From an uncultured Gammaproteobacteria bacterium (GTDB lineage: Bacteria > Patescibacteriota > Microgenomatia > Levybacterales > GWA1-39-11), in NCBI GenBank assembly GCA_964511305.1, contig CAZEEU010000002.1, positions 17,608-81,607 of the forward strand: a stretch of DNA of 64,000 nt, read 5' to 3'. This document shows, piece after piece, positions 8,718 through 62,606 of this stretch. Under the pieces are notes generated by a model, which worked only from the letters and a program-made list of their open reading frames with translations, was not told the DNA's origin and did no database searches. How positions within the stretch are numbered: the stretch's first letter is position 1; every line of letters begins with the position of its first letter. A program made the position numbers and the translations under genes.

Positions 8718-9692
8718 CTAACTCTTGCTCGCCTTCTTGTGGCCGAGCGCAAGTACGTAAGCGCCGATGATGGCACCAAACACCATGAAGGTCAATGCCC
8801 ATGCCTGTGTTTGGCTGACAAGCATGCCTGTCCCCGAACTTGGCGGGGCTGGCGGTTTCGACGGCGTTATTGCCGTCGGTGTCCGCGTAGGCGTAGACTG
8901 CACCTCGGTTGGCGGTGCAGTCGGAGCCAAGGTCGGCGCGACAGTAGGCGAAGCTGTCGGTGGTACCTGCGTACCAGTCGGCGTTGCCGAAGGAGTCGTC
9001 GTCGGTGACAAAGTCCCCGTCGGCGTAGCCGTCGGGGTCTTGGTTTTGGTCGGTGTAGGCGTTGGCTCGACCGTGGTCGGTATAGCCGTCGGCGACGGCG
9101 TCAGGACAATGGTCGGTGTTGGTGGAGGAACCGTTGGGGTGGGCGTTGGCGGCCTACAATTGGGGTTGGGGCGATTAAGCCCCTCACCACCTGCACCATC
9201 CTCGTGGTGTTTGGCCAGCTCTTCCAATCCATACTGGCCTCCGGGTCCGCTCGTCAGGATGCTTCTCGGCGAACTGCCGATATAGACATCGAACTGAACG
9301 AAGCAGACATCGTCGGGTACGGACAGGTAGACTTTGACCGTCTGGCCAGCCTTGATCGTAACAGGCCCGTTCTGGCCAGCGATGTGCTGGTCACACACTT
9401 GGACGCTTGCGCATCCGTGTGTATTGAAGGCCTGAAACGTAGCGTTGTCGCACGTTACCGTACTGTTGTTCGTGACGGCTGCTCCTCCGAACCCGATGGG
9501 CGCCCATGTGAAATTGGCACCCACGCATTCGGAGGGACTTGCACTTACCGTGCGAGGCTGCGGCACCACTGCCACCAATCCCGCGATGAACGCGGCGACC
9601 AGTGGGATCAGTAGTAGCCAAGAACGACCTGCGGGTTTTCTCAAAACCCAACCTCCTTGTCTCACCTTTCCGGCGAGGGCAAACGCAGGCAA
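8718..9692 (-). CDS. secreted/membrane-anchored protein with Cys-containing domain, long Pro/Thr linker and C-terminal TM helix, encoded in a high-GC island
   Basis: N-terminal hydrophobic helix, ~120-aa Cys-containing domain, ~110-aa (PT)n linker, C-terminal TM plus basic tail. The DNA is ~60-65% GC versus a mid-30s% background. Confidence 0.6.
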   Translation of the reverse strand: MPAFALAGKVRQGGWVLRKPAGRSWLLLIPLVAAFIAGLVAVVPQPRTVSASPSECVGANFTWAPIGFGGAAVTNNSTVTCDNATFQAFNTHGCASVQVCDQHIAGQNGPVTIKAGQTVKVYLSVPDDVCFVQFDVYIGSSPRSILTSGPGGQYGLEELAKHHEDGAGGEGLNRPNPNCRPPTPTPTVPPPTPTIVLTPSPTAIPTTVEPTPTPTKTKTPTATPTGTLSPTTTPSATPTGTQVPPTASPTVAPTLAPTAPPTEVQSTPTRTPTAITPSKPPAPPSSGTGMLVSQTQAWALTFMVFGAIIGAYVLALGHKKASKS

Positions 9693-9739
9693 AGTATTAC
9701 CTAAGTTTGTTCTCGCCGAAAAATAGCAGATTTTTAAAG

Positions 9740-9830
9740 AACTGCTAGTCCATATCCATAGCGCGCAAATTTGCTAAACGTAGTTAGCATTAAATGCTAA
9801 ACGCAGTAGCAAATTGCTATGGGATAGAAA
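9740..9830. promoter_or_regulatory. imperfect palindrome upstream of receiver gene (candidate operator)
   Basis: CCATAGCGCGCAAATTTGCTAAACG ... GCTAAACGCAGTAGCAAATTGCTATGG. The two halves are near reverse complements, and TGCTAAACG occurs twice as a direct repeat. Confidence 0.3.
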
Positions 9831-9906
9831 AGCAGTCAAATCATACCACAAAACGGTCAAAATTCAATTAAATTGACATAAAATTACGACAAATGTAATA
9901 TGAGTT

Positions 9907-10356
9907 ATGGGACTCTTTGATAGATTTAAATTCGGCTCACAAAATTCTCAACCATCAGCTCCCTCTCCTGCTGCTCCAGTTGGCCCAAAAATGAAAAAAG
10001 TACTTGTTGTTGAAGACGATGAAGCTCTTCGTGGATTATACGTGGAAGTACTAAAAGCCGAGCAATTAGATGTGATTTCTGCAGAAAATGGCCTTAAAGG
10101 CTTAGAAATTGCCCAAGCACAAAAGCCAGACGTCATTCTCTTGGACCTCATGATGCCTGTTATGGATGGCAAAACCATGCTTCGTACGCTTAGAGGACTT
10201 CCTGGATTTGAAAAACTACCGGTTATTATATTGACCAATGCAGGAGACATAGACTCCATTCGAGAAACAAAATTATTTGGAAATGCCAATGCATTTCTTA
10301 TAAAAGCAAATGTTACCCCTCAAGATATAGTCCAAAATATAAGAACCTACATTTAA
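9907..10356 (+). CDS. receiver-only (CheY-like) response regulator, paralog of 5481..5927
   Basis: Motifs KVLVVEDDEALR and VILLDLMMPVMDGKTML...AFLIKANVTPQD. The C-terminal half is near-identical in motif order to the 5481 protein. An alternative start is the MKKVLVV Met at 9991. Confidence 0.7.
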   Translation: MGLFDRFKFGSQNSQPSAPSPAAPVGPKMKKVLVVEDDEALRGLYVEVLKAEQLDVISAENGLKGLEIAQAQKPDVILLDLMMPVMDGKTMLRTLRGLPGFEKLPVIILTNAGDIDSIRETKLFGNANAFLIKANVTPQDIVQNIRTYI

Positions 10357-48234: not shown

Positions 48235-48615
48235 TCAGATTCTTGTAATATTTTTTGAACTTTTTAATAAGCCATTTATGATCTTATGAACCTCAATGGA
48301 CTTAGCATCAAGTTCCTGAAATACTTCTGAATTCATCAATCCTACGTCATGAGATATTTGTAATTGGCTTTGGAGCTCAGTTACAGAACCAAGTGAAACT
48401 GAATAGAACTGAGACTTATCCTTATAAGTTTTTCTGCTAAAACCTTCTGCTATGTTTGAGACTATAGAGACGACACACCTTCGCATTTGACTTGTTAACC
48501 CAAACTGTTCGATTGTGGGGAAATTTCTTGTAACCTCATAGATTCTAACGGCTAGAACGTGAGATTTTTTCCAAGCAAACAAATCTTCAAACGACTTAAT
48601 TTTTAAATTTTCCAT
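48235..48615 (-). CDS. four-helix-bundle protein (23S rRNA intervening-sequence protein family)
   Basis: F.AWKKSH.LA..IY..T..FP..E.FGLTSQMRR...SI..NIAEG pattern of PF05635/TIGR02436. Confidence 0.75.
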   Translation of the reverse strand: MENLKIKSFEDLFAWKKSHVLAVRIYEVTRNFPTIEQFGLTSQMRRCVVSIVSNIAEGFSRKTYKDKSQFYSVSLGSVTELQSQLQISHDVGLMNSEVFQELDAKSIEVHKIINGLLKSSKNITRI

Positions 48616-48716: not shown

Positions 48717-49619
48717 ATGGCTAAGAATAAGCGTCGTGGCGGTGGATATGGTTTTACAGTTAGTCTTACCGGTCCCGGTACGATTTTTACCATTGGTTTT
48801 ATCACTGTCGCAATCGGCATGGGACTACTTCTTGCACGTGGGGTTGCCCCAAAAAATATGTACTCTGACCCTGGCCCTACTGGAGACCTTGAAGTTATCC
48901 CAGAACCCGCCGATCCGGAGCAAAAAGGTCTTCAACTTAAGACGCTTAAATTCAAAGAATGCGCAAGCACACTTACCATTGATCTACTTGTAGATAAATC
49001 TGATTCCATGAATCGACAAACTAGCTCTGGAGTTGCCAAAATTGCTAGACTTAGGGAAGCGATAAGAGAGCTTATAAGCAATGCGGGAGATGATTCAATA
49101 ATCGGAATCCAATCTTTCACAACTGGCGATATCACAAATGATGTTCCTATTGCCTATTACAAAGACAATAAGTCTACTATCCAGGCAAAAATTACTGCAA
49201 TTGGTGGAAGATCTTCAACTCCTACTTATGAAGCGCTTACGTTTTCCTACAATCATCTAAAAGAGTCTATTCCGAAATTCCCTGCTGATAGGAAGTTCAC
49301 TTTCATATTTATCTCCGATGGTGGTCCATGCCCCGGTTTTGCCTGTCCCGGCAATGCAGGAGCTGATCAAGACCCAAGAATATACAGCCCCAATCCAGCA
49401 GATCAGATCAAAGGATTAGGAGTCGAGGTTTATAGCCTTGGAATTTTCGCCCCAGATGAACGCCAATATGTTTTTCAGATGGAAACCTTGCTAAAAAGCA
49501 TAGCAAGCAAACCAGAAAACTATTTTGCTGCAGAATCAGCAGATGATGTCAAAAGACTTCTTACAACAATTACAAGCAGGCTTTGCACTGGAGGCCCAAC
49601 GCCAACACCGAAGATCTAA
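48717..49619 (+). CDS. membrane-anchored von Willebrand factor A (VWA) domain protein
   Basis: N-terminal TM, MIDAS motif DLLVDKSDSM, VWA fold, C-terminal Cys pair and PTPTP tail. Confidence 0.7.
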   Translation: MAKNKRRGGGYGFTVSLTGPGTIFTIGFITVAIGMGLLLARGVAPKNMYSDPGPTGDLEVIPEPADPEQKGLQLKTLKFKECASTLTIDLLVDKSDSMNRQTSSGVAKIARLREAIRELISNAGDDSIIGIQSFTTGDITNDVPIAYYKDNKSTIQAKITAIGGRSSTPTYEALTFSYNHLKESIPKFPADRKFTFIFISDGGPCPGFACPGNAGADQDPRIYSPNPADQIKGLGVEVYSLGIFAPDERQYVFQMETLLKSIASKPENYFAAESADDVKRLLTTITSRLCTGGPTPTPKI

Positions 49620-49676
49620 CATGAATAAAGAATGTAGAATAAAGAATGTAGAATTAAGAATTAAGAATTAAGCAAT

Positions 49677-50279
49677 ATGTTTTTATTTAAGAAAATCATT
49701 AAAAATGACCCCAATACATTATTCTCATCCCTTAATTCTTCACGGGGTCAGTCTTCTATATATATAGTGATAATTATAATGGTCATAATTTTTGCCGTAA
49801 TGTTTGTAGGTGGCGTAGAATCTCTATCATCCGGCAATGAGGCTTCCCCCGTCAGTATAACGCCATCCGCAGTAGCCGACTCAGGTTCAGCTTCCCCCTC
49901 CGCTGGCTCTGCCTCTCCTACCGCATCAACTTCTCCAACAGCGACTACCGCCCCGGCAACCTGGACTCTTGATGTTATACCTGGTGCGTGTGAAGGATTA
50001 ACTAAGGCTAAGTTCAAAAAGTTTCAGGTAGCCATTAATGGAAACTCCAAGGGCTACATTGCTGTTTCTCAACTAAAGGGAAGCTCTTATGAAGTTTATG
50101 GAACTAGTGAATTCTCACCTCCTCTACAGAATTATACGATGTCTCTACTATCTGACCTTCAATTCGATACAAAACCATGGAAAATAACTATATTTTCAGG
50201 TGGAACAAAAAATGGAGAAAATTGGGTGGGAGGATCAACACAAAAAATATATGACGGCCAACCAACGGGATGCAACTAG
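49677..50279 (+). CDS. membrane-anchored/secreted protein with Ser/Pro/Thr/Ala linker, hypothetical
   Basis: TM helix, SPSAGSASPTASTSPTATTAPA linker, ~110-aa C-terminal domain. Confidence 0.45.
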   Translation: MFLFKKIIKNDPNTLFSSLNSSRGQSSIYIVIIIMVIIFAVMFVGGVESLSSGNEASPVSITPSAVADSGSASPSAGSASPTASTSPTATTAPATWTLDVIPGACEGLTKAKFKKFQVAINGNSKGYIAVSQLKGSSYEVYGTSEFSPPLQNYTMSLLSDLQFDTKPWKITIFSGGTKNGENWVGGSTQKIYDGQPTGCN

Positions 50280-50323
50280 TGACTTGACATGATATATATA
50301 ATTGGTGCAAACTCAAAGTTAGC

Positions 50324-52015
50324 ATGAAATTATTAACAAAAATTAAAAAATTGCTGTTTTTCACCAGCATTTTAATCTTTGCATTATCTGGTCTGAGTTT
50401 TGTAGTATCCCCTAGACCAATAATTCCTGTTGCTCAAGCGGCGTGCCTAATTCCACCTCCAGTGTGCGTCCTTAATTTTTGCGTTGATTCTCCGTTGTGT
50501 GCTCTTGACACGGGTGATCTGAAAGATGCTGGTAAAGTTGCACTTTCACTTGCCGGAAAGGGATTCGGAGAAATTGATGATGTTCTTGCAAAAGTCGCTT
50601 CGCACGGCGGTGACGCTTGTTCAGTTGTTGTTAAACTAGCATCTGAACTTTCACCTGTTGATTTTGATAAGTTGGTTAAAAAATATGGGTGTGATAATAT
50701 TCCAGGTGGTGGTGGCGGTAGTAGTAGCGGTGGTGGCCAAGATGGATTTACCGGGTGTGAAACACCTATTATGACTGAGCGCGGTAGAGACTTCTGCGAA
50801 AGCTTCAGTAGCCATCAATGCTTTTGGTACTCAGGCTATTCCAGCGAATCTCCTAGTTGTAGAACAAATAGTGAAAATATGGATCCCAATCAATTGTGCC
50901 GAGATGGTGGGCATTGCTATATTGGACAGACTTGTCAGCCAGGCAATTATTGTTCATCTACTCCAGAGAGTCCATCAACCAGCCCAGCACCGACCAGTGG
51001 TGGTGGCTCGAGTGGAGGTACAGACACATGCACAGAGGTAGACAGAACAAAAGGTTTTGAGTGGAAATGTATGGATGGCTGCTCCGGGGGGTTCGATGAT
51101 ACCAAGAAGACGAATACTACACCGTTTCACCAATGCACTGCGGGACTAACCTGCTGCGTCAAAAAGACTGTGGCGATTGGCTCTGGCACAGGGACCGGTA
51201 CTGGAAGCACAACTCCTGCTCCAACACCAGCAACGCCAACTGAAATTGGATATTGCGGAGACTCTGTTCCAACATTAGGCACTTTGAAGCCAGTCAATGG
51301 GGCAACATGCGCAACCACTTCAACTGGTAATTTAAGATGGATAAAAAGGAGCACTGATTCATCAGGTTATGATAAATACTGTGATCGTCTAACCGGCCAA
51401 CAACAAGTATACTTCTACGAATGCGCTTCTGGCACGAGTGGTGGTGGATCAACAACACCAACTCCAACTACGACAGCTTCCCCTACCCCAACAACCTTTG
51501 TACCTATTTCTCAAGGTGGTGTGTGCAATCCCGTGCAAGGCCCATGGCAATGTCAGTCACCAAATGTATGTCTTACTGTCCCAGGTGAGGGTAGATGCTG
51601 CCCCGCAGGTACTCAATGGATAAATAATCAGTGCGTAACCCCCACTTCTACTCCAGCACCTACAACAACCCAGACACCTACTAACCCTACACCAATTTCA
51701 ACAGGAAGTACATGCAACGACTATATTCCAGCATCAAATATCCACCAAGTATGTAGAACTGGTGTAAATTCATGTATCGGCACCGAGGTTCAAAATACAG
51801 ATGGAAATAAAGCCTGTTCTGATTTCTACCAAAATACATCAACTTGCTGTCAATTACCTCCAAGCGCGGGACCAGCTGGAGGTTCATGTAATCTACCAGG
51901 AAGAACATGCAATCCTAGCTCAAATACTTCAACAGGAACAAATATTGCATGCACTGGATGCGGAGGATACTGCGTAGGATCAGGCACAACAGGATCCTGC
52001 CAAAATCCCTATTAA
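50324..52015 (+). CDS. large secreted Cys-rich modular protein (Gly/Ser/Thr linkers; 'YCGDS' module)
   Basis: Signal/TM N-terminus, more than 40 Cys in repeated modules separated by GGGSS/TGTGTG/PT linkers. The module IGYCGDSVPTLG recurs in the 56946 protein. Confidence 0.5.
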   Translation: MKLLTKIKKLLFFTSILIFALSGLSFVVSPRPIIPVAQAACLIPPPVCVLNFCVDSPLCALDTGDLKDAGKVALSLAGKGFGEIDDVLAKVASHGGDACSVVVKLASELSPVDFDKLVKKYGCDNIPGGGGGSSSGGGQDGFTGCETPIMTERGRDFCESFSSHQCFWYSGYSSESPSCRTNSENMDPNQLCRDGGHCYIGQTCQPGNYCSSTPESPSTSPAPTSGGGSSGGTDTCTEVDRTKGFEWKCMDGCSGGFDDTKKTNTTPFHQCTAGLTCCVKKTVAIGSGTGTGTGSTTPAPTPATPTEIGYCGDSVPTLGTLKPVNGATCATTSTGNLRWIKRSTDSSGYDKYCDRLTGQQQVYFYECASGTSGGGSTTPTPTTTASPTPTTFVPISQGGVCNPVQGPWQCQSPNVCLTVPGEGRCCPAGTQWINNQCVTPTSTPAPTTTQTPTNPTPISTGSTCNDYIPASNIHQVCRTGVNSCIGTEVQNTDGNKACSDFYQNTSTCCQLPPSAGPAGGSCNLPGRTCNPSSNTSTGTNIACTGCGGYCVGSGTTGSCQNPY

Positions 52016-52023
52016 GATTAAAC

Positions 52024-52668
52024 ATGGAAGAACAACTGCCCACAATACAACAGAGCCCAGAACAACCAAAAAAATCTGGAAATAAAAAGCTTCTCCTTTC
52101 TCTTGGGGGGATTGTTTTAATTTTAGCTATTATTCTTGTTACTTTCTTTGCACTCAAATCAACTTCAATAAAAGAAGAAAAGATAGCACCAAGCTCTGAA
52201 AGCCTTACAAATCCACTAAATATACAAGCTCTGCTAGGTTTTTCTACATTTAACTTGACGGCGGTTGATAAAAGATCCGAAACCGTTGACGTGACACTAG
52301 GAACAACAACTACGGCTGGTATTTCAGGTGGAACTATTGTTATCACCTATGACCCCTTTATGACAAATGACCTAAAGGTAAAACCAATAATTGGATCTAC
52401 CTCTCTTCTTCCAAACGCTATTTTCTCCGAGGTCAAATATAATCCCAACAATATAGTTATCACATTTTCTCTTCCCGAAGGATCTAATCCAGTTACGGGA
52501 TCGGGGAGAATTGCAGCTCTTACCTTTACACCTGTAGCTTACAATAAAACGGATAGATCTACTATATCTTTTGATCTAAAGCGCTCAGAGCTCTATACAA
52601 TAGAAAACGGACAGAAAAAAATATTAAGAGCTTCCCGAGCTGATCTTGATATAAAAATTCAGCCATAA
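52024..52668 (+). CDS. membrane-anchored cohesin-like domain protein
   Basis: TM anchor then a ~150-aa domain: TVDVTLGTTTTAGISGGTIVITYDPFMTNDLKV...GSGRIAALTFTPVAYNKTDRSTISF, matching the cohesin pattern (aG.q..l.YDp.vL ... G..a.itF). Start at the internal ATG 52024. Confidence 0.5.
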   Translation: MEEQLPTIQQSPEQPKKSGNKKLLLSLGGIVLILAIILVTFFALKSTSIKEEKIAPSSESLTNPLNIQALLGFSTFNLTAVDKRSETVDVTLGTTTTAGISGGTIVITYDPFMTNDLKVKPIIGSTSLLPNAIFSEVKYNPNNIVITFSLPEGSNPVTGSGRIAALTFTPVAYNKTDRSTISFDLKRSELYTIENGQKKILRASRADLDIKIQP

Positions 52669-52714
52669 CCTATCCCAAAGTCTATTTCCTCGAATTTATG
52701 GCATACTTATAGAT

Positions 52715-53698
52715 ATGAAGAGTCAAGGATTTATTAATATCGTCATTCCCATCCTTATTCTTGTAACCGCTTTTGCCTTTATGCTTACAAGTGGCAAGAT
52801 GTTCAATATCTCAACCACTAATCCAAATGAAAAATACGAAAGTCCAGTCACTTCCGGAGACTCACAGAAAAAAAATCTTCAATTAAAAAAACTCACTTTT
52901 AAGCCAAAGCCCACTCCCGTTGGGGACGCGTGCAATCATGATATGTCAAAAAAGGTTGACCCAAATGTATGCACCAATTGCATTGCGTGGCTTGTCTACT
53001 GTAAAGATAACGCATGTGTTGATGTTGATACCACTAAATCGAAAATGCCAGGAGACAAAACAACCGTATGCCCAGAGTTTGAAAATTCGGGGTGGTGCAG
53101 AACTCTTGCCATGGAGGGAGACGGATGGTACTGCATAGGCAAGCCAGTAATATACCTCTACCCCACAGTCCCCACCCTTGTTAACGTCAAAATCAGAACA
53201 GAAGGCGCTGTTGTTGTAAGCGATCCCCAAATAGAAAAAGAGAATGGATGGACAAATGTCATGGCTCACCCAAATGGAATACTTTTCTACAACGATCAAC
53301 CATTCCGTGAATTGTTCTACGAGTCGGAGGCGCAAAATGTGAGTCAGCCGAAGGCCGGATTTGTTTTTAAAAAAGAAAATCTTAAAAAGGAATTAACTGA
53401 CTTCATAGAAAAATTAGGTTTAACACGTGAGGATGAAAAGGATGAATTCCTTGAGTGGTGGCTTCCCCGCTTGGAGGCATTTGAGTCTCCATATTGGTTT
53501 GTTTCAATTCTAGAAAAAGATGAAAAAAGACGTATTGATGAAGTGACAATATCTCCCAAGCCCGATACATTTATCGAGTTTATCGCGTATTTCAAGCCAC
53601 TTGAAAATGCTGAAGAAGTTGAAAAATTGATTCTTCCTCCTACTCCACAACGAAAAGGCTTTACAGCCGTCGAATGGGGAGGGGTTATTGGTAAATAA
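52715..53698 (+). CDS. membrane-anchored/secreted protein, hypothetical (shares LQLKxLxFK motif with the VWA protein)
   Basis: TM helix, then KNLQLKKLTFK (compare KGLQLKTLKFK in the 48717 protein), then a Cys-rich region and a ~200-aa domain. Confidence 0.45.
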   Translation: MKSQGFINIVIPILILVTAFAFMLTSGKMFNISTTNPNEKYESPVTSGDSQKKNLQLKKLTFKPKPTPVGDACNHDMSKKVDPNVCTNCIAWLVYCKDNACVDVDTTKSKMPGDKTTVCPEFENSGWCRTLAMEGDGWYCIGKPVIYLYPTVPTLVNVKIRTEGAVVVSDPQIEKENGWTNVMAHPNGILFYNDQPFRELFYESEAQNVSQPKAGFVFKKENLKKELTDFIEKLGLTREDEKDEFLEWWLPRLEAFESPYWFVSILEKDEKRRIDEVTISPKPDTFIEFIAYFKPLENAEEVEKLILPPTPQRKGFTAVEWGGVIGK

Positions 53699-53710
53699 GC
53701 GAAGCTTGCC

Positions 53711-53727
53711 CTTTTGGCAAAGGGTGA
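53711..53727. terminator. hairpin CCCTTTtggcAAAGGG immediately after stop of 52715..53698
   Basis: Inverted repeat read from the sequence, within a GC-rich ~100-bp segment between convergent genes. No downstream T-tract, hence low confidence. Confidence 0.3.
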
Positions 53728-53801
53728 CACCGACCCTCCTCTTCTGGGCGCTGCCATGCAATGGCGAGTACTCTTGGGGTGGAGGGGTTATTGGAAGATA
53801 G

Positions 53802-54392
53802 CTACTGAAGACTAGCAAGCATTGCATCATACTGAGCCTCAATCACTGGATCTTTATCCCCTACATATGACAGCTGTAATCTTATAATTGAATACCCTTT
53901 TTGAAATAAAGCAACTTTCTCGTGAAGACGCAGAACTGAATTGCCACCTTTATAATAATAGCCAGGCATATCGCTACGCGCTATCTCTTTACTTTCGTAT
54001 TTGGCACTCTGGTAGGGTTTTGATAAGTCCTCAATTGTGTTATTTTGACGGGAAAAAACAACCACGCTTATCTCTTTTGTTGACGGGCTTACAAAGCGTA
54101 TGTATTCGGAAATGCCTTCGTTTGGTATTACACTTACAACCTGAAAGCTTTCAGGGTAAGCAATTGAAAAAATTTCAGAATTGTATCTTACCGACGTGAT
54201 ACTACCTTCCTGCGTTTTGACAATGCCTGGACTGGCATTTGTAGGTGCTGGAGTTATATTGGATTTGCCGGCCACACTAACGTTGTCAGCATTTCGCAAG
54301 GACACTATTGCAAATGTCGTAAGTCCTAGACATCCCACCACTATAATAACCGCCATTTTTTTCCATCCAAGCTTCTCTACTAGTTGTTCCAT
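53802..54392 (-). CDS. membrane-anchored protein, hypothetical
   Basis: N-terminal TM then a ~160-aa extracytoplasmic domain. No motif. Confidence 0.45.
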   Translation of the reverse strand: MEQLVEKLGWKKMAVIIVVGCLGLTTFAIVSLRNADNVSVAGKSNITPAPTNASPGIVKTQEGSITSVRYNSEIFSIAYPESFQVVSVIPNEGISEYIRFVSPSTKEISVVVFSRQNNTIEDLSKPYQSAKYESKEIARSDMPGYYYKGGNSVLRLHEKVALFQKGYSIIRLQLSYVGDKDPVIEAQYDAMLASLQ

Positions 54393-54461
54393 ATATTTAA
54401 ATATTATCAGATTTTCTTAATTCTTGATTCTTAATTCTTAATTCTATATACTCGTGACAAG

Positions 54462-55778
54462 ATGCTAAGCCAACAAGATCCAGAAGTTTATGCCATACTC
54501 CAAAAAGAAGACAAGAGACAGCGGGATACTCTAACGCTTATACCTTCAGAAAATTACGCCTCCCTTGAAGTGAGATCCACCCTCGCGTCAGTATTTACAA
54601 ATAAATATTCAGAAGGATATTCAAAGAAAAGATATTATCAGGGAAATGCCAATGCTGATGACATAGAAATGCTAGCAATGGAGCGAGCAAAAAAATTATT
54701 TGGCGTTCCTTTTGTAAATGTCCAACCTTATTCAGGAAGTCCGGCAAATACGGCAGTCTATTTTGCACTACTCGAACCTCTAAAAAGCAAAATTATGGGA
54801 CTTGCTCTGTCATCTGGAGGACATCTAACTCATGGGTCACCTGTTAGCTTTTCTGGCAAATATTTTAAAACTGTCAGCTTTCCTGTAACTCGCGACGGAA
54901 TCCTTGATATGGATGAAATAGAGAAATTGGCCATAAAAGAAAAACCGCAGATCATTGTATGTGGATTCACTGCATACCCACGAATTATTGATTTTGAAAG
55001 ATTTGGCAAGATTGCTGATAAGTGTGGGGCTTATTTACTTGCTGATGTGTCCCATATTGCTGGTCTTATTGCTGGAGGCGCTCATCCTTCACCCGCAAAT
55101 CACGCCCATATCATTATGACTACAACTCACAAATCTCTTCGCGGACCCCGAGGAGCAATGCTTATGGTAACTGAAAAAGGTATTCAAAAAGATCCAGATC
55201 TTCCAGAAAAAATAAATAAGGCGGTTTTTCCAGGCCTCCAAGGAGGACCTCACGATAACCAGACAGCAGCAATCGCTGTTGCGTTAAAAGAAGCCATGAG
55301 CCCGGAATTTAAAAAATATGCTCATCAAATAGTTAAAAACGCGAAAGTTCTTGCTGATGTTCTACTAGCAAATGGCTTTCGTCTTACAACAGGTGGCACG
55401 GAAAATCATTTAATTGTTATAGACACCATGTCAAAAGGGGTTAATGGAGCACTCGCCTCTTACGCTCTGGAGCTTGGGGGGATAATTACCAATAAAAATA
55501 CTATTCCGTATGACACACTTCCCCCTTTCTATCCGTCAGGTGTAAGAATTGGAACTCCTGGAAGTGCCACTCGGGGCATGAAGGAAAAAGAAATGAAGAT
55601 TCTAGGACAATGGATTGCTGATATTATCAAGGAATGCGAAGGAAATGTATTACCGGAGATAAAAGAAGAACGCGGACCTTTCTTTAAGAATTTTAAGAAA
55701 GAAATAGCTGAAAATAAAAAAATCAAAAAAATTGCTCTTGAAGTTAAAAGAACACTCAAAGAATTCCCGCTTCCCTAA
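54462..55778 (+). CDS. glyA: serine hydroxymethyltransferase
   Basis: SHMT signature ...SGGHLTHGSPVSFSGKYF... and PLP-lysine region TTTHKSLRGPRG. Confidence 0.95.
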   Translation: MLSQQDPEVYAILQKEDKRQRDTLTLIPSENYASLEVRSTLASVFTNKYSEGYSKKRYYQGNANADDIEMLAMERAKKLFGVPFVNVQPYSGSPANTAVYFALLEPLKSKIMGLALSSGGHLTHGSPVSFSGKYFKTVSFPVTRDGILDMDEIEKLAIKEKPQIIVCGFTAYPRIIDFERFGKIADKCGAYLLADVSHIAGLIAGGAHPSPANHAHIIMTTTHKSLRGPRGAMLMVTEKGIQKDPDLPEKINKAVFPGLQGGPHDNQTAAIAVALKEAMSPEFKKYAHQIVKNAKVLADVLLANGFRLTTGGTENHLIVIDTMSKGVNGALASYALELGGIITNKNTIPYDTLPPFYPSGVRIGTPGSATRGMKEKEMKILGQWIADIIKECEGNVLPEIKEERGPFFKNFKKEIAENKKIKKIALEVKRTLKEFPLP

Positions 55779-55846
55779 AAAACGCGCTTCTTATTGACAC
55801 TCAAGTCTATCTTCACTACTATGTAAATAGTTGGCCTTATATAGAT

Positions 55847-56959
55847 ATGGTAAAAATTATTCCTCGAATTCTCTTTCTCATTGTAAGCCTTTTTTTTATA
55901 ATCCCTATGAATTTACAAATAAATGCATCAAACGAAAATTCTAAAATAGACACAAATAAAACTTTGGCTTTTATCCCAGGTACAGACAAACTACCAGATA
56001 GCTATATATGGACACAGAATTCATCACCTTGCTCAGCAGGTGAAGCTTATTGTTATCAAGACACAACAGGAAATTACCAACATGGAATCGAAAATACTCA
56101 AAACAATGATTTACCCCCGGCAGATCAATCAGTTAACGATAATCCAAATGGGAACACCAGTCGCAAATCTGGATATGGAGGGGATTGTACAATATTTGGC
56201 GGTTGCGTGAATGAAGGGGTATGCGAACTCACAGACATTGGAGGCATTAACGGTCAATGTGTTGCGCCCAGAACAGCACAGCCAACTAGTTGCAATAGTC
56301 AGAGTGGCCGGGCAAATGGATGCAACTGCGAACAATCAAATAACACTCAATGCGCAAGTCAATATTGTGGTGGACCATATCGAGTAGAAGATGTCTATCG
56401 CAGGGGAAGCCCAAAAACTATCGGCACCTGTCAATCGTCAACGGTGTCTGGTCCATCCGTAACACCTGGCCCTTCAAGTCAGCCTCTTGTATGCGGAATT
56501 ATTGGAGATCCTAATGCAGACGGGATGATTACTGACGCAGATGCCTTATTTGTAGGAAGAATGATGGCTGGCCTTGAAACATCAACTCCCGACAGGATAG
56601 CAAGAGCAGATGTTAATAATGACGCTATTGTAGACAGCAAAGATCAATTAGAAATAAGAAAATATGTTACAAAATTAATTACAACTTTTCGTGCTTGCAA
56701 TAGTTCTAACCCTCCCCAAGTCTTATGTCCTCCTGAGACGACAAATCCCAATACAACACTCAAGAACAAAGGGGATGCAAATTGCAGCGGTACAATAACA
56801 ATTCAAGACTACAATTTATGGCGGGATGAATTCATTGCTAAAGAAGCCAATACAACCAACAGAACAAAGTACGCTGATTTTAATGGTGGGGATGTTACGA
56901 TTTCTGACTATAATATATGGAGAGATAATTTTATAGCTACAAATAATGGAACAAACTAA
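55847..56959 (+). CDS. secreted Cys-rich protein carrying two tandem dockerin-like modules
   Basis: Signal peptide. Dockerin-type Ca-loop pairs GDPNADGMITDAD / ADVNNDAIVDSKD and GDANCSGTITIQD / ADFNGGDVTISD, each followed by a hydrophobic helix (classic D-x-N-x-D-G-x-I-x-x-x-D repeats). Confidence 0.6.
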   Translation: MVKIIPRILFLIVSLFFIIPMNLQINASNENSKIDTNKTLAFIPGTDKLPDSYIWTQNSSPCSAGEAYCYQDTTGNYQHGIENTQNNDLPPADQSVNDNPNGNTSRKSGYGGDCTIFGGCVNEGVCELTDIGGINGQCVAPRTAQPTSCNSQSGRANGCNCEQSNNTQCASQYCGGPYRVEDVYRRGSPKTIGTCQSSTVSGPSVTPGPSSQPLVCGIIGDPNADGMITDADALFVGRMMAGLETSTPDRIARADVNNDAIVDSKDQLEIRKYVTKLITTFRACNSSNPPQVLCPPETTNPNTTLKNKGDANCSGTITIQDYNLWRDEFIAKEANTTNRTKYADFNGGDVTISDYNIWRDNFIATNNGTN

Positions 56960-59042
56960 CAACCCAATCATCCAGTATATTAAGACTCTAAAAAGAAAAC
57001 AGATTTTTATGGCAATTGGTGGTTTAATTGTAGCTGGTGCTCTTGTCACAACGTTATATCTCGTAAAACAATCCCAGGACTTAAGACAACGGGCTTCTGG
57101 AGAAGAAGTTATACTCTCATATTCCCCTTCTCAAATACAATTAGCACAGCATACAGAAACTGCAATTGAGCTTAAAGCCAGAACCATAGCAGCAAATGTG
57201 AATGTTACAGCAATCCAAACGACTGTAAAGTTTGATCAAGATAAAGTCGAGCTCGTGAGATACGAAGACGGTAACAGATCGGCACTACTAACACCTCTTC
57301 AAACTCCGTCACCAAATAATGCAGCAGGTACCATGAGCGTTACCTTCCTGCGACCAACGGCAGACGCAACTGTTCTTAGTGGAGACATCAATCTTGGTCG
57401 GCTAATATTTAAATCTAAAGGAACTATCGGAGTAACTGACATCACGGCAATTAACTCTTTAGTTACTAAGTCTGGATCCTACACTGACATAACGCCGGGA
57501 GTTGAAGTATCCAGTCTCACTGTTTCGTCAAATACATCTGTTACAGTTACGACAGCACCAAGCGGAACAACCGCCCCCTCTCCTTCTCCAAATACTCAGC
57601 CGACAGGCTCACAGGTATATTGTGGAGATTCTAGTCATGTTGGTTGCACGGTTGGACTTTATTCCTGCTACGTTAACCTAGGCAATAATGTAGGCAAGAC
57701 ATGTACAGATGTGTCTGGCAGTAACGGCACATACAATTGCGTTAAATGCGCATATGTCACTCCATCGCCAACGGTATCCCCTAGCACAACCCCTGTACCA
57801 AGAGTTCCTGAATGTGGAGTTTCAACTATTCCACCTACGATAGGAGCTGCCCCACTCAAAGTAGCTTTACATGGTTCTGGAAAGTCAAATGCACTGGGAG
57901 TAGGAATTGCAGGATATGAATGGGATTTTGATGGAAATGGAACATGGGATTCTCCTGTCCAACTTGATTACATAGAACATATTTATACTGTTAATGGTAC
58001 ATATAGACCTAAATTCAGAATTAAGGGTCAAAATGGTAAATACAGTGAGACTTGCACTTACGGATATGAGGTGCTGGTTGGACCCATCTCAACAAATCCC
58101 AACTATGACGTGACCATTATTCCGCCAGCCAATCTTCAACCATCAGGCAATATAGATTCTGGAAGCCGAAATATAACATGGACAGCTTCAGCAAAAGCTG
58201 AGGGAGGTTACTATCTGAGAGTTAATGAGGATGGAATAGATACTACAACTTGGAACGCACCTAGTTGTGATTCGAATACAAATTTAAGAACCGGCGATAT
58301 TTGCGAAACAATTAACACAACCAGCTACTCTTATACATTTAAGCCTGGAAAGAATTACTTTGTATGGGTTCACAGTCGAGCAACTAATGGTAAATACGGT
58401 GAGCCAGTTGCCGCCACTGTAGTCACGCGTGCTGGTTCCGAGCCAACAACTTCACCCACATTAACGCCTACGGCAACTATATTTCCTACTGCAACTCTTG
58501 CACCAAATGATACAGCTATAAATGTGAACATTGCACTTCCTGGTATAGGCACTGGGGCTGAAAATCTGGGACTTAATGCAACCCCAATACACCCACAAAG
58601 AACTGCAACGCTTAAGCTATACGACAATACGAGTGCAAATATTAAAACAGTCGATGCTATCATGACCTACGTGCCACAGTCATCATCCTACTTTGGCCAA
58701 TTCCCATTGGGCACCACATTCCCAACAGGAGTGTATACTGCAAAAATTAAGGTCAACAATGCTCTCTATCGAAGCCTTGTAGGATCAATGCAAATTACAG
58801 GCGGCGTAGCAAATGCGTCTACTATATGGACAGGAACTCCAAGGAATCTTATTAGCGGAGATCTAAATAATGATAATACTCTTGGTATTATTGACTGGAC
58901 CTATATGATAGCTTGCGTAAAGAATGAGGCAGCTTGCACATCCGCAATAAGAGGTCTTGCAGACCTTAACGATAATGGAAGTGTTGACGAGATAGATGTT
59001 CAGATATTACAACGCGGGTTTGCATTACGTGACGGAGACTAA
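56946..59042 (+). CDS. membrane-anchored multidomain surface protein: cohesin-like + Cys-rich 'YCGDS' module + PKD + FN3-like + C-terminal dockerin
   Basis: TM anchor. Cohesin-like segment (TTVKFDQDKVELV...GRLIFKSKGTIGVTDI). PKD motif (GYEWDFDGNGTWDS...HIYTVNGTYRPKFRIKGQNG). Dockerin loops GDLNNDNTLGIID / ADLNDNGSVDEID at the C-terminus. Confidence 0.6.
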   Translation: MEQTNNPIIQYIKTLKRKQIFMAIGGLIVAGALVTTLYLVKQSQDLRQRASGEEVILSYSPSQIQLAQHTETAIELKARTIAANVNVTAIQTTVKFDQDKVELVRYEDGNRSALLTPLQTPSPNNAAGTMSVTFLRPTADATVLSGDINLGRLIFKSKGTIGVTDITAINSLVTKSGSYTDITPGVEVSSLTVSSNTSVTVTTAPSGTTAPSPSPNTQPTGSQVYCGDSSHVGCTVGLYSCYVNLGNNVGKTCTDVSGSNGTYNCVKCAYVTPSPTVSPSTTPVPRVPECGVSTIPPTIGAAPLKVALHGSGKSNALGVGIAGYEWDFDGNGTWDSPVQLDYIEHIYTVNGTYRPKFRIKGQNGKYSETCTYGYEVLVGPISTNPNYDVTIIPPANLQPSGNIDSGSRNITWTASAKAEGGYYLRVNEDGIDTTTWNAPSCDSNTNLRTGDICETINTTSYSYTFKPGKNYFVWVHSRATNGKYGEPVAATVVTRAGSEPTTSPTLTPTATIFPTATLAPNDTAINVNIALPGIGTGAENLGLNATPIHPQRTATLKLYDNTSANIKTVDAIMTYVPQSSSYFGQFPLGTTFPTGVYTAKIKVNNALYRSLVGSMQITGGVANASTIWTGTPRNLISGDLNNDNTLGIIDWTYMIACVKNEAACTSAIRGLADLNDNGSVDEIDVQILQRGFALRDGD

Positions 59043-59124
59043 TATAGAATTAAGGACAATGAATAAAGCGTAAAGAGAAAAGTTGACAGTAAAAGAAAAT
59101 TGCTTAATACTTAATTCTTGATAC

Positions 59125-59745
59125 TTGATTCGAATAATACTGCCTAACATGCCTAAAAAAACGACAATACTAATAGTGATTCTTGCTCTAGTTACAGGAG
59201 TTCTTATTTTCCTTGCGGTACGATCGGATCAAGGACAAAATTTACTCTCGACTGATCAGGGAGAAGCTACCCCTACCCAAGTGCAACCATTTGCAAGCTT
59301 GTCATTTGAGAACCCACTTCTTGATGCTTCAACCGGCCCGACAACACAATCGGTAAATATTGTAATTGATACTCTGGGTAAACCTGCCGCAGGAGCACAA
59401 ATAGAGCTTTCATATAATCCTGCTGTGCTAACGAATGTGAGCGTTAAGACTCCCCAGACGTCTTTCTTTGGAGCAAACCCGAGTGTGCTTATAAATACTG
59501 TTGATCCTACTCAGGGAAGAATCTCTTACGCTGTAGGGATATCTGCATCAGATGCAGAGAAGTCTGGAAATGGTACCTTAGCAACCATAACTTTCACAGT
59601 AAATAGACTCGCTGGTATTGCAACTACTAATCTAACCTTTCTTCCTAAATCTGCTGTAACAACACTGAGTGCTCAGGGGTCAATTCTCAACACCTCAACT
59701 CCCCTTGAGATACGCCTTACACCTCTTCCAACATCTGCCAATTAA
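59125..59745 (+). CDS. membrane-anchored cohesin-domain protein
   Basis: TM anchor then TQSVNIVIDTLGKPAAGAQIELSYNPAVLTNVSV...GNGTLATITFTVNRLAGIATTNLTF, the best cohesin-like match in the window. Confidence 0.6.
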   Translation: MIRIILPNMPKKTTILIVILALVTGVLIFLAVRSDQGQNLLSTDQGEATPTQVQPFASLSFENPLLDASTGPTTQSVNIVIDTLGKPAAGAQIELSYNPAVLTNVSVKTPQTSFFGANPSVLINTVDPTQGRISYAVGISASDAEKSGNGTLATITFTVNRLAGIATTNLTFLPKSAVTTLSAQGSILNTSTPLEIRLTPLPTSAN

Positions 59746-59748
59746 TGC

Positions 59749-60099
59749 ATGTTTATTGATAAAATTTGGAAAAAGAATCAATATGTCCTTCTTGTAGCGG
59801 CAACGGTACTTTTGGGAGCCTGCCTAGCAATACTTATTCTCCTGCGATTTAGTTCCAATAGGCAACAAGAGCATCAACAAAATACAATAACCCAACAGTC
59901 GGCCTCTCAAAATTGCACTGCTCAAAAAATAGCGTGTAACCCTCAATTCATAGACAATAAGAAGATAGCATGTGGATTACTTAAAAATAAGATAATTGAT
60001 GAACTTTTGAAACGAAATGAGTCACCATGTAAGAGTATTAATAGAGAAATAGTTGAAAATCAAATGAATGAAGCATGTCAAATAGGTTGCCCCAAGTAA
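59749..60099 (+). CDS. small membrane-anchored Cys-containing protein, hypothetical
   Basis: TM helix then a ~80-aa segment with 6 Cys. Confidence 0.35.
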   Translation: MFIDKIWKKNQYVLLVAATVLLGACLAILILLRFSSNRQQEHQQNTITQQSASQNCTAQKIACNPQFIDNKKIACGLLKNKIIDELLKRNESPCKSINREIVENQMNEACQIGCPK

Positions 60100-60147
60100 C
60101 TTCTGTAGTTGATTTAAGTGATAGCATTCTGAAATAATGTAACTAAT

Positions 60148-60510
60148 ATGGCAGACATACCACAAAATTCATTTCAAGGACCTTTGGCTCCAAAATATGG
60201 ATTAAATGACAATTTCAGAAATCCGATTCCGGCTGGACCCAAAGTTAATATTCCAAAAAACAGAAATTACGGGCGACTTATACCGGTGGGCGCAGTTGCA
60301 CTTGCGCTTCTTATTCTTCCTTTAACTATCCAGCAGCTTGGCCAGCAACAAGATAATAGACAGCAAGCATCTCAACCAACTCCTACAATATCGCTACCTG
60401 CCCAGGTGACTTCCCCGACATCAACCCCGACACCTATAGGCCTTACTCCAACACCAACCTCTACAGTAGAATTAGTACCACCACTTCAAGCAACTTCTTC
60501 CGGGAATTAA
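60148..60510 (+). CDS. small membrane-anchored Pro/Thr-rich protein, hypothetical
   Basis: Central TM helix then a PT-rich tail (SPTSTPTPIGLTPTPTSTV). Confidence 0.35.
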   Translation: MADIPQNSFQGPLAPKYGLNDNFRNPIPAGPKVNIPKNRNYGRLIPVGAVALALLILPLTIQQLGQQQDNRQQASQPTPTISLPAQVTSPTSTPTPIGLTPTPTSTVELVPPLQATSSGN

Positions 60511-60513
60511 ATT

Positions 60514-61026
60514 TTAATGGTGCCCTGAACCTGGCTTAGAAAGCACTGGGGTATTTCCACGTCTTACTTTTGCTGCAAAATCAGCAGCCATGTCCCCAGC
60601 TGCATATGCCATAAGTCCTACCCCTGCTACAGGGTGAGCAGCTCCTAGAACTCCCAGGATTGTAAGTCCCATACCGGCACGTTTTACGCCCTTGTCCATT
60701 GTCTGCTCGAATGGACCTTGATGCTCGGGGAACATACCTTTCTTTGATCTATTCTTAAATTTTGCCATCATGTCTGCCATAAAATCTCCAGCTGCATACG
60801 TAAGCAGACTCAAACCTACCACGGGATGACTCATGGCGATTGTTCCTATTGCTACAAGGGCAAGGCTTGCCCCCCATTTGATTTTTTTATCTGCGAAATT
60901 CTCAGTTATTCCCTCATGATGTACAAAGGTTGCAAATTGAGGTTCTGAATGAGAAGCCTCATGACTTGCTTCATGTCCACGCGTCTCAGCAGGTGCTGCA
61001 TGTGATGGTCCGTGTTCTGCGCTCAT
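60514..61026 (-). CDS. membrane protein with His-rich N-terminus and two internal repeats, hypothetical
   Basis: Repeats HPVVGLSLLTYAAGDFMADMMAKF and HPVAGVGLMAYAAGDMAADFAAKV. N-terminal HEASHEASH. Confidence 0.45.
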   Translation of the reverse strand: MSAEHGPSHAAPAETRGHEASHEASHSEPQFATFVHHEGITENFADKKIKWGASLALVAIGTIAMSHPVVGLSLLTYAAGDFMADMMAKFKNRSKKGMFPEHQGPFEQTMDKGVKRAGMGLTILGVLGAAHPVAGVGLMAYAAGDMAADFAAKVRRGNTPVLSKPGSGHH

Positions 61027-61394
61027 ATTATTTAGATAATTTCTTTCTTAAGTTGAAAACTTTTCGTTCTAAAGAACGGGCCACAAAAGGCTTAACTGCT
61101 TCAAAGGTGTTTGATGCAACCTTACCGACAACTTTTGCCCCTGTCTTAATATCTTTTGTAGGTAACTCAATTTCTTTCACAGTGCGTAATTATATCAGAA
61201 AACCTGGGAAAATTAAAGTACTATGGGATTAAGTGTTGCACACTTAATCCCAACGAAGTTAAGATGCAATCTTAACTGAGTATGGGACAATCTGTGATCC
61301 TAGACACAGAACAATCTTTGTCAAAAGATTTTTATGGGATTAAGACGAAGTCCATTGTGCTTTGGGCGAAGCCAAAAGAGTTGGGGTAAATTTG

Positions 61395-61466
61395 AGGCGC
61401 GGAAGGGAATCGAACCCTCGCATAGAAGTTTTGCAGACTCCCGTGTTACCACTTCACCACCGCGCC
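61395..61466 (-). tRNA. tRNA-Cys (anticodon GCA)
   Basis: Reverse complement folds as GGCGCGG|TG|GTG-AAGTGGTAA-CAC|G|GGAGT-CTGCAAA-ACTTC|TATGC|GAGGG-TTCGATT-CCCTT|CCGCGCC|T. 7-bp acceptor stem, T-loop TTCGATT, U33 and A37 present, anticodon GCA. CCA not encoded. Confidence 0.85.
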
Positions 61467-61550
61467 ATGAGTGTTGAGTGTATCAAAATTTGAGGCAAAA
61501 ATCCATCTCCACGATTGATTTACCCCACCCTCACAGACTAAACTTAATCC

Positions 61551-62606
61551 GTGAACAAAAAAATAATCTTAATTGCCTTAATAGTGCTTGTTCTTATAGG
61601 TGTTGTCGTCACAACTCTTCTTATTAGACAAAACCAGGACAATAGACAGCGAGCTGATGAAGGAACTCCTACGACAACACAAGGTCCTACTCTCGACACA
61701 GAAGAATGGAATTTCGTTAGGATTTTGAACGAACATAGGCAAGAAATAGGACACAATCCACTTAAAGTGTCCCAAAAATTAACACTAGCAGCTAGATGGA
61801 TGTCAACAGACATGGCAGCAAGAAATATATTGCCCGCTGATCATTCAGATTCGCTTGGCAGGCAATTCCAAAACAGAATAAGATCATTTGGCTACAACGC
61901 CGTACCTATTGGAGAAAATATAGCAAAAGTTGGTGCAACCGGTCAAAACGCATTTGATGCTTGGCTCGCCTCAACAATGGGGCATAAAGAAGAAATGGAA
62001 AGCCCTGCAAGAAGTGTTATTGGTATTGCTAGAGTTCAAAGTGGAAATAGCTGGTATTGGACTGCAGACTTCGGGCCATCGTTAGACTCCGAAATTACTC
62101 CAACGACAACTCCATCTATTACTGATAGCCCTACCCCATCAACAACAGTATCTCCTACATTATCAGTTACTACAACCCAAGAGCCCACAATAACTGCCTC
62201 ACCAACAACTGTAATAGTAACCCCTTCTAATACGGTAACTCCTACGTTGACCGCAACTTCGACACCCACGTCTACAGCAACGCCAACACCAACTTCGACT
62301 CCTACCGCAACTCCTACCCCAACGCCTAGTCCAACAAAAGTACCAACAAGCACACCAACTCCTACATCCAAACCAACTGCTACTCCCACAGCTACGTCCA
62401 TTCCAACTGTGCCTCCAACGGCAACTCCAACAATCCTACCAACTGTAATTGCTCATATATCACCAACCCCTACACAATTGCCGCCTATTGCAACGAGCAC
62501 TCCAGTACCATCCATAGCACAACCAGGAGGACTCGTACCTACTCTGGGTATATTTGGTGGAATTTTGGTCGTGATCGTTGCTGGAATATTCTTGTTAGCA
62601 CTTTAG
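61551..62606 (+). CDS. membrane-anchored CAP (SCP/PR-1-like, YkwD-type) domain protein with long Pro/Thr linker and C-terminal TM
   Basis: N-terminal TM. CAP-domain motifs (LNEHR...G..PL, HK..M, SWYWTADFG). ~130-aa (PT/ST)n linker. C-terminal hydrophobic helix. Confidence 0.7.
   Translation: MNKKIILIALIVLVLIGVVVTTLLIRQNQDNRQRADEGTPTTTQGPTLDTEEWNFVRILNEHRQEIGHNPLKVSQKLTLAARWMSTDMAARNILPADHSDSLGRQFQNRIRSFGYNAVPIGENIAKVGATGQNAFDAWLASTMGHKEEMESPARSVIGIARVQSGNSWYWTADFGPSLDSEITPTTTPSITDSPTPSTTVSPTLSVTTTQEPTITASPTTVIVTPSNTVTPTLTATSTPTSTATPTPTSTPTATPTPTPSPTKVPTSTPTPTSKPTATPTATSIPTVPPTATPTILPTVIAHISPTPTQLPPIATSTPVPSIAQPGGLVPTLGIFGGILVVIVAGIFLLAL

Follow-up and report, generated by a model that had tools for sequence, protein, structure and literature searches.

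Tandem dockerins of two subfamilies beside cohesin genes in a Microgenomates bacterium: a candidate surface-display system

Candidate Phyla Radiation bacteria (CPR, or Patescibacteria) are believed to live bound to host cells, and how they build and vary their surfaces is largely unknown. A locus in a 64,000-nucleotide stretch of a Microgenomates-type CPR genome (positions 17,608 to 81,607 of contig CAZEEU010000002.1, assembly GCA_964511305.1; hereafter the window, by whose numbering all coordinates are given) raises this question in a concrete form: what does a secreted protein with two dockerin modules do in such a cell, next to three cohesin genes? The window has a GC content of ∼38% and small genes. 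The protein, hereafter the target, is encoded by an open reading frame (ORF) at 55847..56959 on the plus strand, with an ATG start and 370 amino acids before the stop codon, and consists of a signal peptide, a Cys-rich N-domain, a first dockerin (module 1), a linker and a second dockerin (module 2). An earlier note, made from the DNA letters alone, had described it as a secreted Cys-rich protein with two tandem dockerins that could cross-link two cohesin-bearing anchors; the ORF and the loop and helix peptides quoted there are all present as given. The answer that we favor, and consider probable, is that the target is a disulfide-rich cargo exported by the Sec pathway and held on the surface of the CPR cell by Ca-dependent binding of dockerin to cohesin. 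The case is built on what the domains are and how they are predicted to fold, on the subfamily to which module 2 belongs and its internal symmetry, and on the conservation of the gene neighborhood.

Two dockerin modules and their families

The ORF is a real gene under constraint, as follows from its codon pattern when compared with an ortholog (193 identical codons, 45 with synonymous differences only and 51 non-synonymous) and from the synteny around it, which is kept on contigs of up to 353 kb. Scans for promoters and terminators gave results at chance level only.

Module 1 (56492..56698, plus strand; residues 216-284) is a member of the dockerin family on every criterion that could be tested. 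The Pfam model Dockerin_1 (PF00404) matches residues 220-274 with 44.9 bits (E=1.4e-11; cutoff 22.9), the two 12-residue EF-hand-like loops, DPNADGMITDAD (221-232) and DVNNDAIVDSKD (255-266, with Ala instead of Gly at position 6), are each followed by a helix, and the sequence matches in the PDB include Ruminococcus bromii Amy16 (1.8e-6) and 1ohz/2ccl (3e-5). The AlphaFold2 model of residues 204-370, based on an alignment of tandem relatives with 11 sequences (A6), reaches a mean predicted local distance difference test score (pLDDT) of 80.4 and a predicted template modeling score (pTM) of 0.54 and places a helix after each Ca-loop; in module 1, it predicts the three-helix dockerin fold (helices 230-240, 248-254 and 264-274; pLDDT 89-97), to which Foldseek finds dockerin matches with TM-scores (TMt) of 0.75-0.90.

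In the duplicated 12-residue Ca-loop with its helix, the three helices and the length of ∼70 amino acids, module 1 is like the clostridial type I dockerins (PF00404; Clostridium thermocellum Xyn10B, 1OHZ/2CCL) and that of R. bromii Amy16 (9QF9), whereas the target lacks their cellulolytic or amylolytic context. The two halves of module 1 are also asymmetric at positions 10, 11, 17 and 18, through which type I dockerins classically recognize their partners, with D10 A11 ... G17 R18 in the first half and S10 K11 ... R17 K18 in the second (DA/GR versus SK/RK). Furthermore, a pair of cysteines, C216 and C284, brackets the module; in known dockerins, a non-covalent ‘intramolecular clasp' takes this place (PMC3821032). 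Such a pair is almost always present around the canonical dockerin in the tandem relatives (C-x3-4-GD ... TFxxC; alignment A6), and C216-C284 is a candidate disulfide that would amount to a covalent version of the clasp. The linker that follows (56699..56749, plus strand; residues 285-301, including C294; about 17-25 amino acids) is predicted with low confidence, residues 291-303 being below a pLDDT of 50.

Module 2 (56750..56953, plus strand; residues 302-369; pLDDT 66-91) belongs to a subfamily, here called ‘DFNIWRDxF', for which Pfam and NCBIfam have no separate model. An exhaustive HMMER search of 1.84 billion representative proteins returned 1031 matches, many of them covering only residues ∼300-366, and the family consensus reads CPLKxxGDANCDGxINxxDFxIWRxEF ... 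ADFNxDGxVxxxDFxIWRxxF. The hidden Markov model (HMM) of the family separates its members, at 66 bits or more, from canonical dockerins, at 34 bits or less; module 2 of the target scores 94-96 bits. When a profile of 27 sequences (A3) is compared with all PDB sequences, the matches 2y3n_B (2.6e-7), 5nrk_B (5.4e-7), 4fl4_A and 1ohz_B (4.8e-5) extend over both repeats, and the earliest generic EF-hand protein appears at 7.7e-4, below the dockerins. Foldseek ranks the double-dockerin Clo1313_0689 of C. thermocellum (8x3a/8x39) at the top of its PDB matches, followed by 23 single dockerins, among them 2ccl_B (TMt 0.90, root-mean-square deviation (rmsd) 1.1 Å). Given the family profile, the HMM separation, and the model with its Foldseek ranking, module 2 is, as judged from sequence comparison and predicted structure, a divergent dockerin homolog, so that the initial claim of two dockerins stands for both modules. 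Since the members of the family straddle the Pfam threshold (12.6 to 40.5 bits for Dockerin_1, the maximum being that of protein P0141), module 2 is usually missed by standard annotation, and a single dockerin stretch is what such annotation reports for P0008, P0009, P0099 and P0133.

When the four Ca-loops named in the earlier note are compared, loops 1-3 have 12 residues, loop 3 (DANCSGTITIQD, 310-321) with Ser at position 5, whereas loop 4 (DFNGGDVTISD, 344-354) has 11, one fewer than the family consensus DFNxDGxVxxxD, with the gap at the position-5 Asp; the ortholog P0002 has the same shortened loop. The helices of module 2 (319-333 and 352-367) bear the peptides DYNLWRDEF and DYNIWRDNF. 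Their pattern, DYN(L/I)WRD(E/N)F, is thus present as first described but is not unusual: it marks a whole subfamily, of which 68 non-redundant instances were collected, mostly from metagenome-assembled genomes (MAGs) of the Microgenomates group.

These 68 instances display a conspicuous internal symmetry. Residues D12, F/Y13, W16 and F/Y20 are constant or nearly so in both halves and would lie on one helix face, where D12, F13, W16 and F20 may form an aromatic core. Positions 9, 10, 11, 14 and 18, in which the symmetry signal is concentrated, vary among proteins but tend to match between the two halves of one protein, in pairs such as TD/TD, IL/IL, LN/LN, LV/LV and TA/TA. The half-to-half identity within proteins, compared with that between proteins, is 0.69 versus 0.31 at position 10, 0.49 versus 0.11 at position 11, 0.75 versus 0.24 at position 14 and 0.34 versus 0.13 at position 18; the overall identity is 0.53 within and 0.40 between proteins, and none of 2000 permutations reached the observed value. 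In the target, the residues are I10 Q11 N14 D18 in one half and I10 S11 N14 D18 in the other. Such a pattern is as expected if positions 10, 11, 14 and 18 constitute a two-fold symmetric surface suited to dual-mode cohesin binding; the dual binding mode of type I dockerins is attributed to their internal symmetry (Carvalho et al. 2007, cited after PMC3821032; title of PDB entry 2VN5).

Module 2 was found mainly in MAGs labeled Levyibacteriota, Shapirobacteria, Roizmanbacteria, Gottesmanbacteria, Microgenomates and ‘Patescibacteria group', a census that is biased toward members resembling ‘GDANC...DFNIWRDE' because the genome scan used the narrower alignment A5 in place of A3, which was too diverse; a word-indexed search with the module-2 profile gave one protein and is not usable as a census. 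Many MAGs from third-party records bear titles, such as ‘uncultured Gammaproteobacteria' or ‘Saccharibacteria', that disagree with what their genes and the named Levyi-, Shapiro-, Roizman- and Gottesmanbacteria matches indicate, and these titles were taken as placeholders. The module is C-terminal in 63 of the 79 instances, and in two of the collected loci, L013 and L028, it is N-terminal, following the signal peptide. Arrays of two to four consecutive genes, each ending (or, in L028, beginning) with module 2, are found in L028, L031, L033, L023 and L020. Another locus, L043, on a contig titled Candidatus Methanoperedens sp., encodes a 622-amino-acid protein (4333-7445) with two module-2-type dockerins, followed directly by two cohesin genes; this archaeon-binned contig could reflect either lateral transfer or mis-binning. 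ANME archaea are rich in proteins with cohesins and dockerins (PMC9012536).

The tandem of a canonical dockerin with module 2 is a recurrent arrangement. A canonical dockerin is located no more than 45 amino acids upstream of module 2 in 9 of the 79 instances, including the target; the tandem occurs in at least eight other proteins, with N-terminal cargo that is unrelated among them and with linkers of 0 to about 45 amino acids. One of these, P0034 (1147 amino acids), combines Inhibitor_I9, Peptidase_S8 and Cohesin domains with a canonical dockerin (Doc1) and module 2 (Doc2), a striking parallel to the S8 protease of C. thermocellum that carries the sole structurally studied double-dockerin. 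The closest ortholog of the target, P0002 (292 amino acids; 82% identity at aligned positions), lacks residues ∼213-293, that is, the entire module 1, although its genomes keep all three cohesin genes; bivalency is therefore dispensable. In the more distant P0007, a full-length homolog with 35% identity, both modules are present and module 2 is degenerate. Because P0007 has both modules, it is more parsimonious to assume that module 1 was lost on the way to P0002, and the tandem is probably ancestral. P0002 is identical in amino acid sequence on L001 and L002 (10001-10879), which is unexpected for an otherwise fairly fast-evolving protein; the neighboring genes of these two loci differ in length (583 versus 563, 336 versus 309 and 707 versus 697 amino acids).

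The part of the protein that the dockerins would carry starts with a predicted Sec signal peptide, read from the sequence (55847..55927, plus strand; residues 1-27, MVKIIPRILFLIVSLFFIIPMNLQINA), with recognizable n-, h- and c-regions (K3/R7, a hydrophobic core and a small residue at -1). Cleavage is predicted after INA, between MVKIIPRILFLIVSLFFIIPMNLQINA and SN, and helix 4-23 is the sole confident part of a single-sequence AlphaFold2 model of the whole protein (overall pLDDT 33.8). The next ∼190 amino acids (55928..56491, plus strand; residues 28-215) form a domain rich in Cys and in G/S/N/T. It contains 12 of the 16 cysteines of the protein, at residues 62-195; the remaining four are the pair around module 1, C216 and C284, and two at module 2, C294 and C313. 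The protein was thus correctly described as secreted, with a Cys-rich domain devoid of a recognizable enzyme: this domain has no family match in Pfam (E<=1), NCBIfam, PHROGs or the PDB and no paralogs in the window or the collected loci. A fibronectin type I match of the N-domain profile in the PDB (E=0.01) was dismissed as being at chance level. Relatives of the N-domain are limited to P0002, P0003, P0007, P0070 and P0152, the last being the sole addition from a search of a 5.8-billion-protein database with the N-domain alignment (A4). Within that alignment, a conserved ‘head' motif, FxPGxDKLPxxxxWxQNxxPC..E.YCYQxxxGxYQHG (55970..56086, plus strand; residues 42-80), is shared with P0070, P0152 and P0007. 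The motif also occurs on proteins with other types of dockerin, namely P0070 and P0152 with anchors of the third class described below, which fits a design of cargo with interchangeable plugs. Our guess is that the N-domain is a putative adhesin or ligand-binding module.

Cohesin genes and the cassette

All three cohesin modules claimed in the earlier note are encoded around the target, in ORFs that score above the Pfam Cohesin cutoff of 24.1 bits. CohA (51949..52668, plus strand; 26.0 bits), a membrane-anchored cohesin with orthologs in L001 and L002, probably starts near 52024, as suggested by the length of those orthologs (215-222 amino acids). CohB is the N-terminal part of a 698-amino-acid protein (56946..59042, plus strand; 28.0 bits for Cohesin and 25.6 bits for Dockerin_1), the gene of which is overlapped by the target ORF by 14 nucleotides; this protein, a candidate adaptor, starts with a hydrophobic segment followed by QSQDLRQRASGEE and continues through CohB and a PKD/FN3-like region to a C-terminal dockerin. 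CohC (59125..59745, plus strand; 206 amino acids; 36.5 bits) is a short membrane-anchored cohesin and a candidate surface anchor; its homologs in L011, L012 and L016 occupy the corresponding place. Each of the three proteins has one cohesin and an N-terminal hydrophobic anchor, and all three cohesins lie within 8 kb, with low mutual similarity. CohB and CohC have no sequence relative in the PDB at E<=1, so that neither can be assigned to a cohesin type.

The dockerin of the candidate adaptor represents a third class, Doc3, with the pattern GDLNxDNxIDxxDYNxFxAC...C...ADxNDDGxVDxxDxxILxxxFAxR(D/E/K/Q)GD at the extreme C-terminus and a Cys pair between the halves. Examples are found at ∼58860-59039 of the window, at the C-termini of L012 6366-8885, L016 3037-4566 and L023 6198-7394, and in P0070; in the examples examined, Doc3 is carried by the cohesin-bearing second gene of the cassette.

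This cassette has the order cargo with module 2, protein with a cohesin and a dockerin, short transmembrane cohesin, and it recurs in the window, L001 to L003, L011, L012 and L016. In the distant genomes, the cargo is different: VWA and SdrD_B domains in L011 and CARDB in L012. In a broader count, 19 of the 48 module-2 genes, in 19 of the 35 evaluable loci, are followed by a cohesin ORF that starts at most 150 nucleotides downstream. Ten of the cohesin neighbors were sampled and compared with Pfam; six match Cohesin at E<=1.5e-3, two of these above 24.1 bits, and three of the ten have a C-terminal dockerin match at E<=0.003. The reading that the earlier note had named as counting against its claim, a generic EF-hand repeat devoid of a cohesin partner, was rejected for module 2: in the comparison of the family profile with the PDB, dockerins come ahead of EF-hand proteins, and cohesin genes adjoin the module, following it directly in the 19 loci.

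Many surface proteins of this clade open with a hydrophobic helix followed by the motif Q(Q/S)Q(D/E)(L/I)RQRA(S/A)G(E). It is carried in the window by the 698-amino-acid protein (56946-57110, residues 1-55) and at 61551-61670, and elsewhere by P0070, P0152, P0034, P0067 and P0108 and by genes of L011, L016 and L023. Possibly, the motif serves this clade as a specific signal for sorting or cleavage; in the case of cleavage, the adaptor with its cohesin and dockerin would leave the membrane.

Neither dockerins nor double-dockerins nor non-cellulosomal pairs of cohesin and dockerin are new, and the target is not a new kind of system. Among the closest known systems are the rare double-dockerins, dDoc_0689 of C. 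thermocellum (Clo1313_0689, 8X39/8X3A; Chen et al. 2024, as cited in PMC12484212) and DocDoc/ScaK of Acetivibrio cellulolyticus (PMC4217186). Like these, the target has tandem dockerins at the end of one polypeptide, and the model matches dDoc_0689 best among the PDB structures. Unlike them, it combines modules of different dockerin subfamilies through a linker that is predicted to be flexible, in place of a packed interface, it comes from a CPR bacterium that has no cellulosome enzymes, and its cargo is a Cys-rich domain, not a protease. Surface proteins with cohesins and dockerins have also been reported from organisms without cellulose degradation (Peer et al. 2009, PMC3035643; ANME archaea, PMC9012536), and the present locus resembles those, also in that the anchors are small single-cohesin proteins and not large scaffoldins. 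Compared with a cellulosome, it lacks carbohydrate-active enzymes borne by dockerins and a multi-cohesin scaffoldin; no glycoside hydrolase or carbohydrate-binding module was detected in the target or in the neighbors scanned. The NCBIfam family NF041540 (dockerin_GC) is similar in having a C-terminal dockerin-like anchor of ∼67 amino acids, and P0109 and P0097 align with it weakly over the full length (14.7-15.8 bits versus a cutoff of 29), but the target itself does not match this model and is not a member. Literature searches found no description of the ‘DFNIWRDxF' subfamily or of the operon-like cassette.

Surface display and its alternatives

Taken together, these features suggest the following scheme. 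The target would be secreted via Sec and oxidized so that disulfides form, and dockerin-cohesin binding would display it on the cell surface, with the Cys-rich N-domain, including the head motif, as the putative functional cargo. Module 2 would be the conserved primary plug, in which positions 10, 11, 14 and 18, opposite the aromatic core, would be the specificity surface; with this surface duplicated in both halves, dual-mode binding would be allowed. The most likely dock for module 2 would be a cohesin encoded directly downstream. This could be CohB, in which case the adaptor would in turn be attached through Doc3 to the membrane cohesin CohC, or module 2 could bind to CohC without the adaptor. 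Module 1 would be an accessory second plug, probably for a different cohesin such as CohA, giving bivalent attachment in the target lineage and lost in the sister lineage. A generalization of this scheme, which we offer tentatively as a possibility that is not the likeliest outcome, is that Microgenomates CPR run compact, operon-encoded, hierarchical surface display with at least three orthogonal dockerin classes (Doc1, Doc2 and the ‘RxGD'-terminated Doc3), in which cargo would bind to the adaptor cohesin through Doc2, the adaptor would bind to the membrane cohesin through Doc3, and proteins with both Doc1 and Doc2 would bridge two branches.

Several observations weigh against surface display by this route or weaken the evidence for it. 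An HMM search of the kind suggested in the earlier note confirms a dockerin in module 1, but module 2 scanned alone (C-terminal 87 amino acids) gives only 16.5 bits with Dockerin_1 (E=0.0099; cutoff 22.9), and because loop 4 is one residue short and without the position-5 Asp, Ca binding at the second site of module 2 may be impaired or weakened. There is no adjacent cohesin in 16 of the 35 loci, the cohesin calls at distant loci rest in part on a self-built iterated cohesin HMM, and 4 of the 10 sampled neighbors have no Pfam cohesin match. The permutation test of symmetry takes no account of the relatedness of the sequences, and without any selection, the same symmetry could arise by gene conversion between the halves. 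Finally, the pairing of dockerins with cohesins in this scheme, Doc2 with CohB or CohC and Doc1 with CohA, is pure conjecture.

Some of these same facts would be accommodated if module 2 did not bind cohesins at all and were a Ca-binding, EF-hand-like tail that stabilizes the protein or targets it to the envelope (for example, to a glycan or an S-layer component), leaving module 1, where present, as the only real dockerin. The sub-threshold score, shared by several family members, and the loci without a cohesin would fit such a tail, as would the weak matches of family members to EF-hand and dockerin_GC models and the aromatic F/W/F pattern, which is atypical among characterized dockerins. Yet the family profile places solved dockerins above all EF-hand proteins, with both repeats aligned, P0141 reaches 40.5 bits for Dockerin_1, cohesin genes are tightly adjacent in 19 loci, the symmetric co-variation on one helix face is reminiscent of dockerin recognition positions, and module 2 is the sole candidate anchor of many proteins, all of which makes this explanation improbable.

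The other alternatives concern not the identity of module 2 but the use of the tandem. The cross-linker originally envisaged would have both dockerins engaged at once on two different membrane cohesins, possibly on two cells, as a strut of a lattice or a bridge between symbiont and host. It draws on the clear difference between the two dockerin classes, the flexible linker predicted between them and the presence of three dissimilar cohesins within 8 kb, and the recurrence of the tandem with unrelated cargo suggests selection as a unit; however, P0002 lacks module 1 in genomes that still have the three cohesin genes, module 2 of P0007 is degenerate, and in the double-dockerin of C. thermocellum only the first module has a defined partner according to the account in PMC12484212, so that we regard simultaneous cross-linking as rather unlikely. 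In that account, dDoc_0689 is also described as having a stable, packed dockerin-dockerin interface with limited mobility, and the target could in principle be a similarly rigid unit with a single functional site and a second module of structural importance only. The Foldseek ranking, with 149-160 columns aligned to 8x3a/8x39, and the S8 protease that shares the tandem in P0034, echoing the S8 protease context of dDoc_0689 (PMC12484212), point in this direction. The predicted disorder of the linker (pLDDT <50) and the low pTM (0.54) in spite of confident modules do not, nor does the full-length rmsd of about 12 Å relative to the double-dockerin, which means that the modules can be superposed, whereas the placement of one relative to the other differs. 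With linkers ranging from 0 to about 45 amino acids among the tandem relatives and module 2 occurring without a partner dockerin in most family members, a rigid unit seems very improbable. Display of the Cys-rich cargo through dockerin-cohesin binding, with module 2 as the main plug, thus remains the reading that we prefer.

The surrounding island and its implications

The target cassette is embedded in an island of surface protein genes (48717-62606). Apart from the cohesin genes, the island encodes a transmembrane VWA protein (48717-49619), a very Cys-rich secreted protein of 563 amino acids with no Pfam match (50324-52015), a transmembrane protein of 327 amino acids, part of which is rich in Cys (52715-53698), a protein in which a CAP domain is combined with a long, PT-rich stalk and a transmembrane segment at the C-terminus (61551-62606), a 200-amino-acid transmembrane protein and small transmembrane proteins; a gene for serine hydroxymethyltransferase (54462-55778) is embedded among these. 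At the edge of the island, on the minus strand (48235-48615), lies a gene for a 125-amino-acid four-helix-bundle protein of the 23S_rRNA_IVP/bAvd-like type (124.8 bits). Proteins similar to bAvd accompany diversity-generating retroelements. Elsewhere in the window, two regions stand out by their GC content. An ORF at 41524-43830 on the plus strand encodes a 768-amino-acid, low-complexity protein rich in Ala, Pro, Thr and Glu, with internal repeats, no Pfam match and a GC content of 0.48 compared with ∼0.38 elsewhere, and a second GC-rich patch (8001-10000; 0.488) has no Rfam match and contains a 324-amino-acid ORF (8718-9692, minus strand) that has no match in Pfam.

The locus offers pairs that can be tested directly, three dockerin classes against three cohesins in a single 8-kb region, and if the pairs are specific, they would be new orthogonal cohesin-dockerin pairs for protein engineering. 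A dockerin subfamily that is mostly missed by Pfam and is located next to probable cohesin partners points to modular plug-and-socket surface display as a major route in Microgenomates. If the three-class system is real, it would represent a minimal, non-cellulolytic ‘cellulosome logic' of ultrasmall episymbionts, by which these bacteria would assemble and swap adhesins or enzymes on their surface, possibly for attachment to the host.

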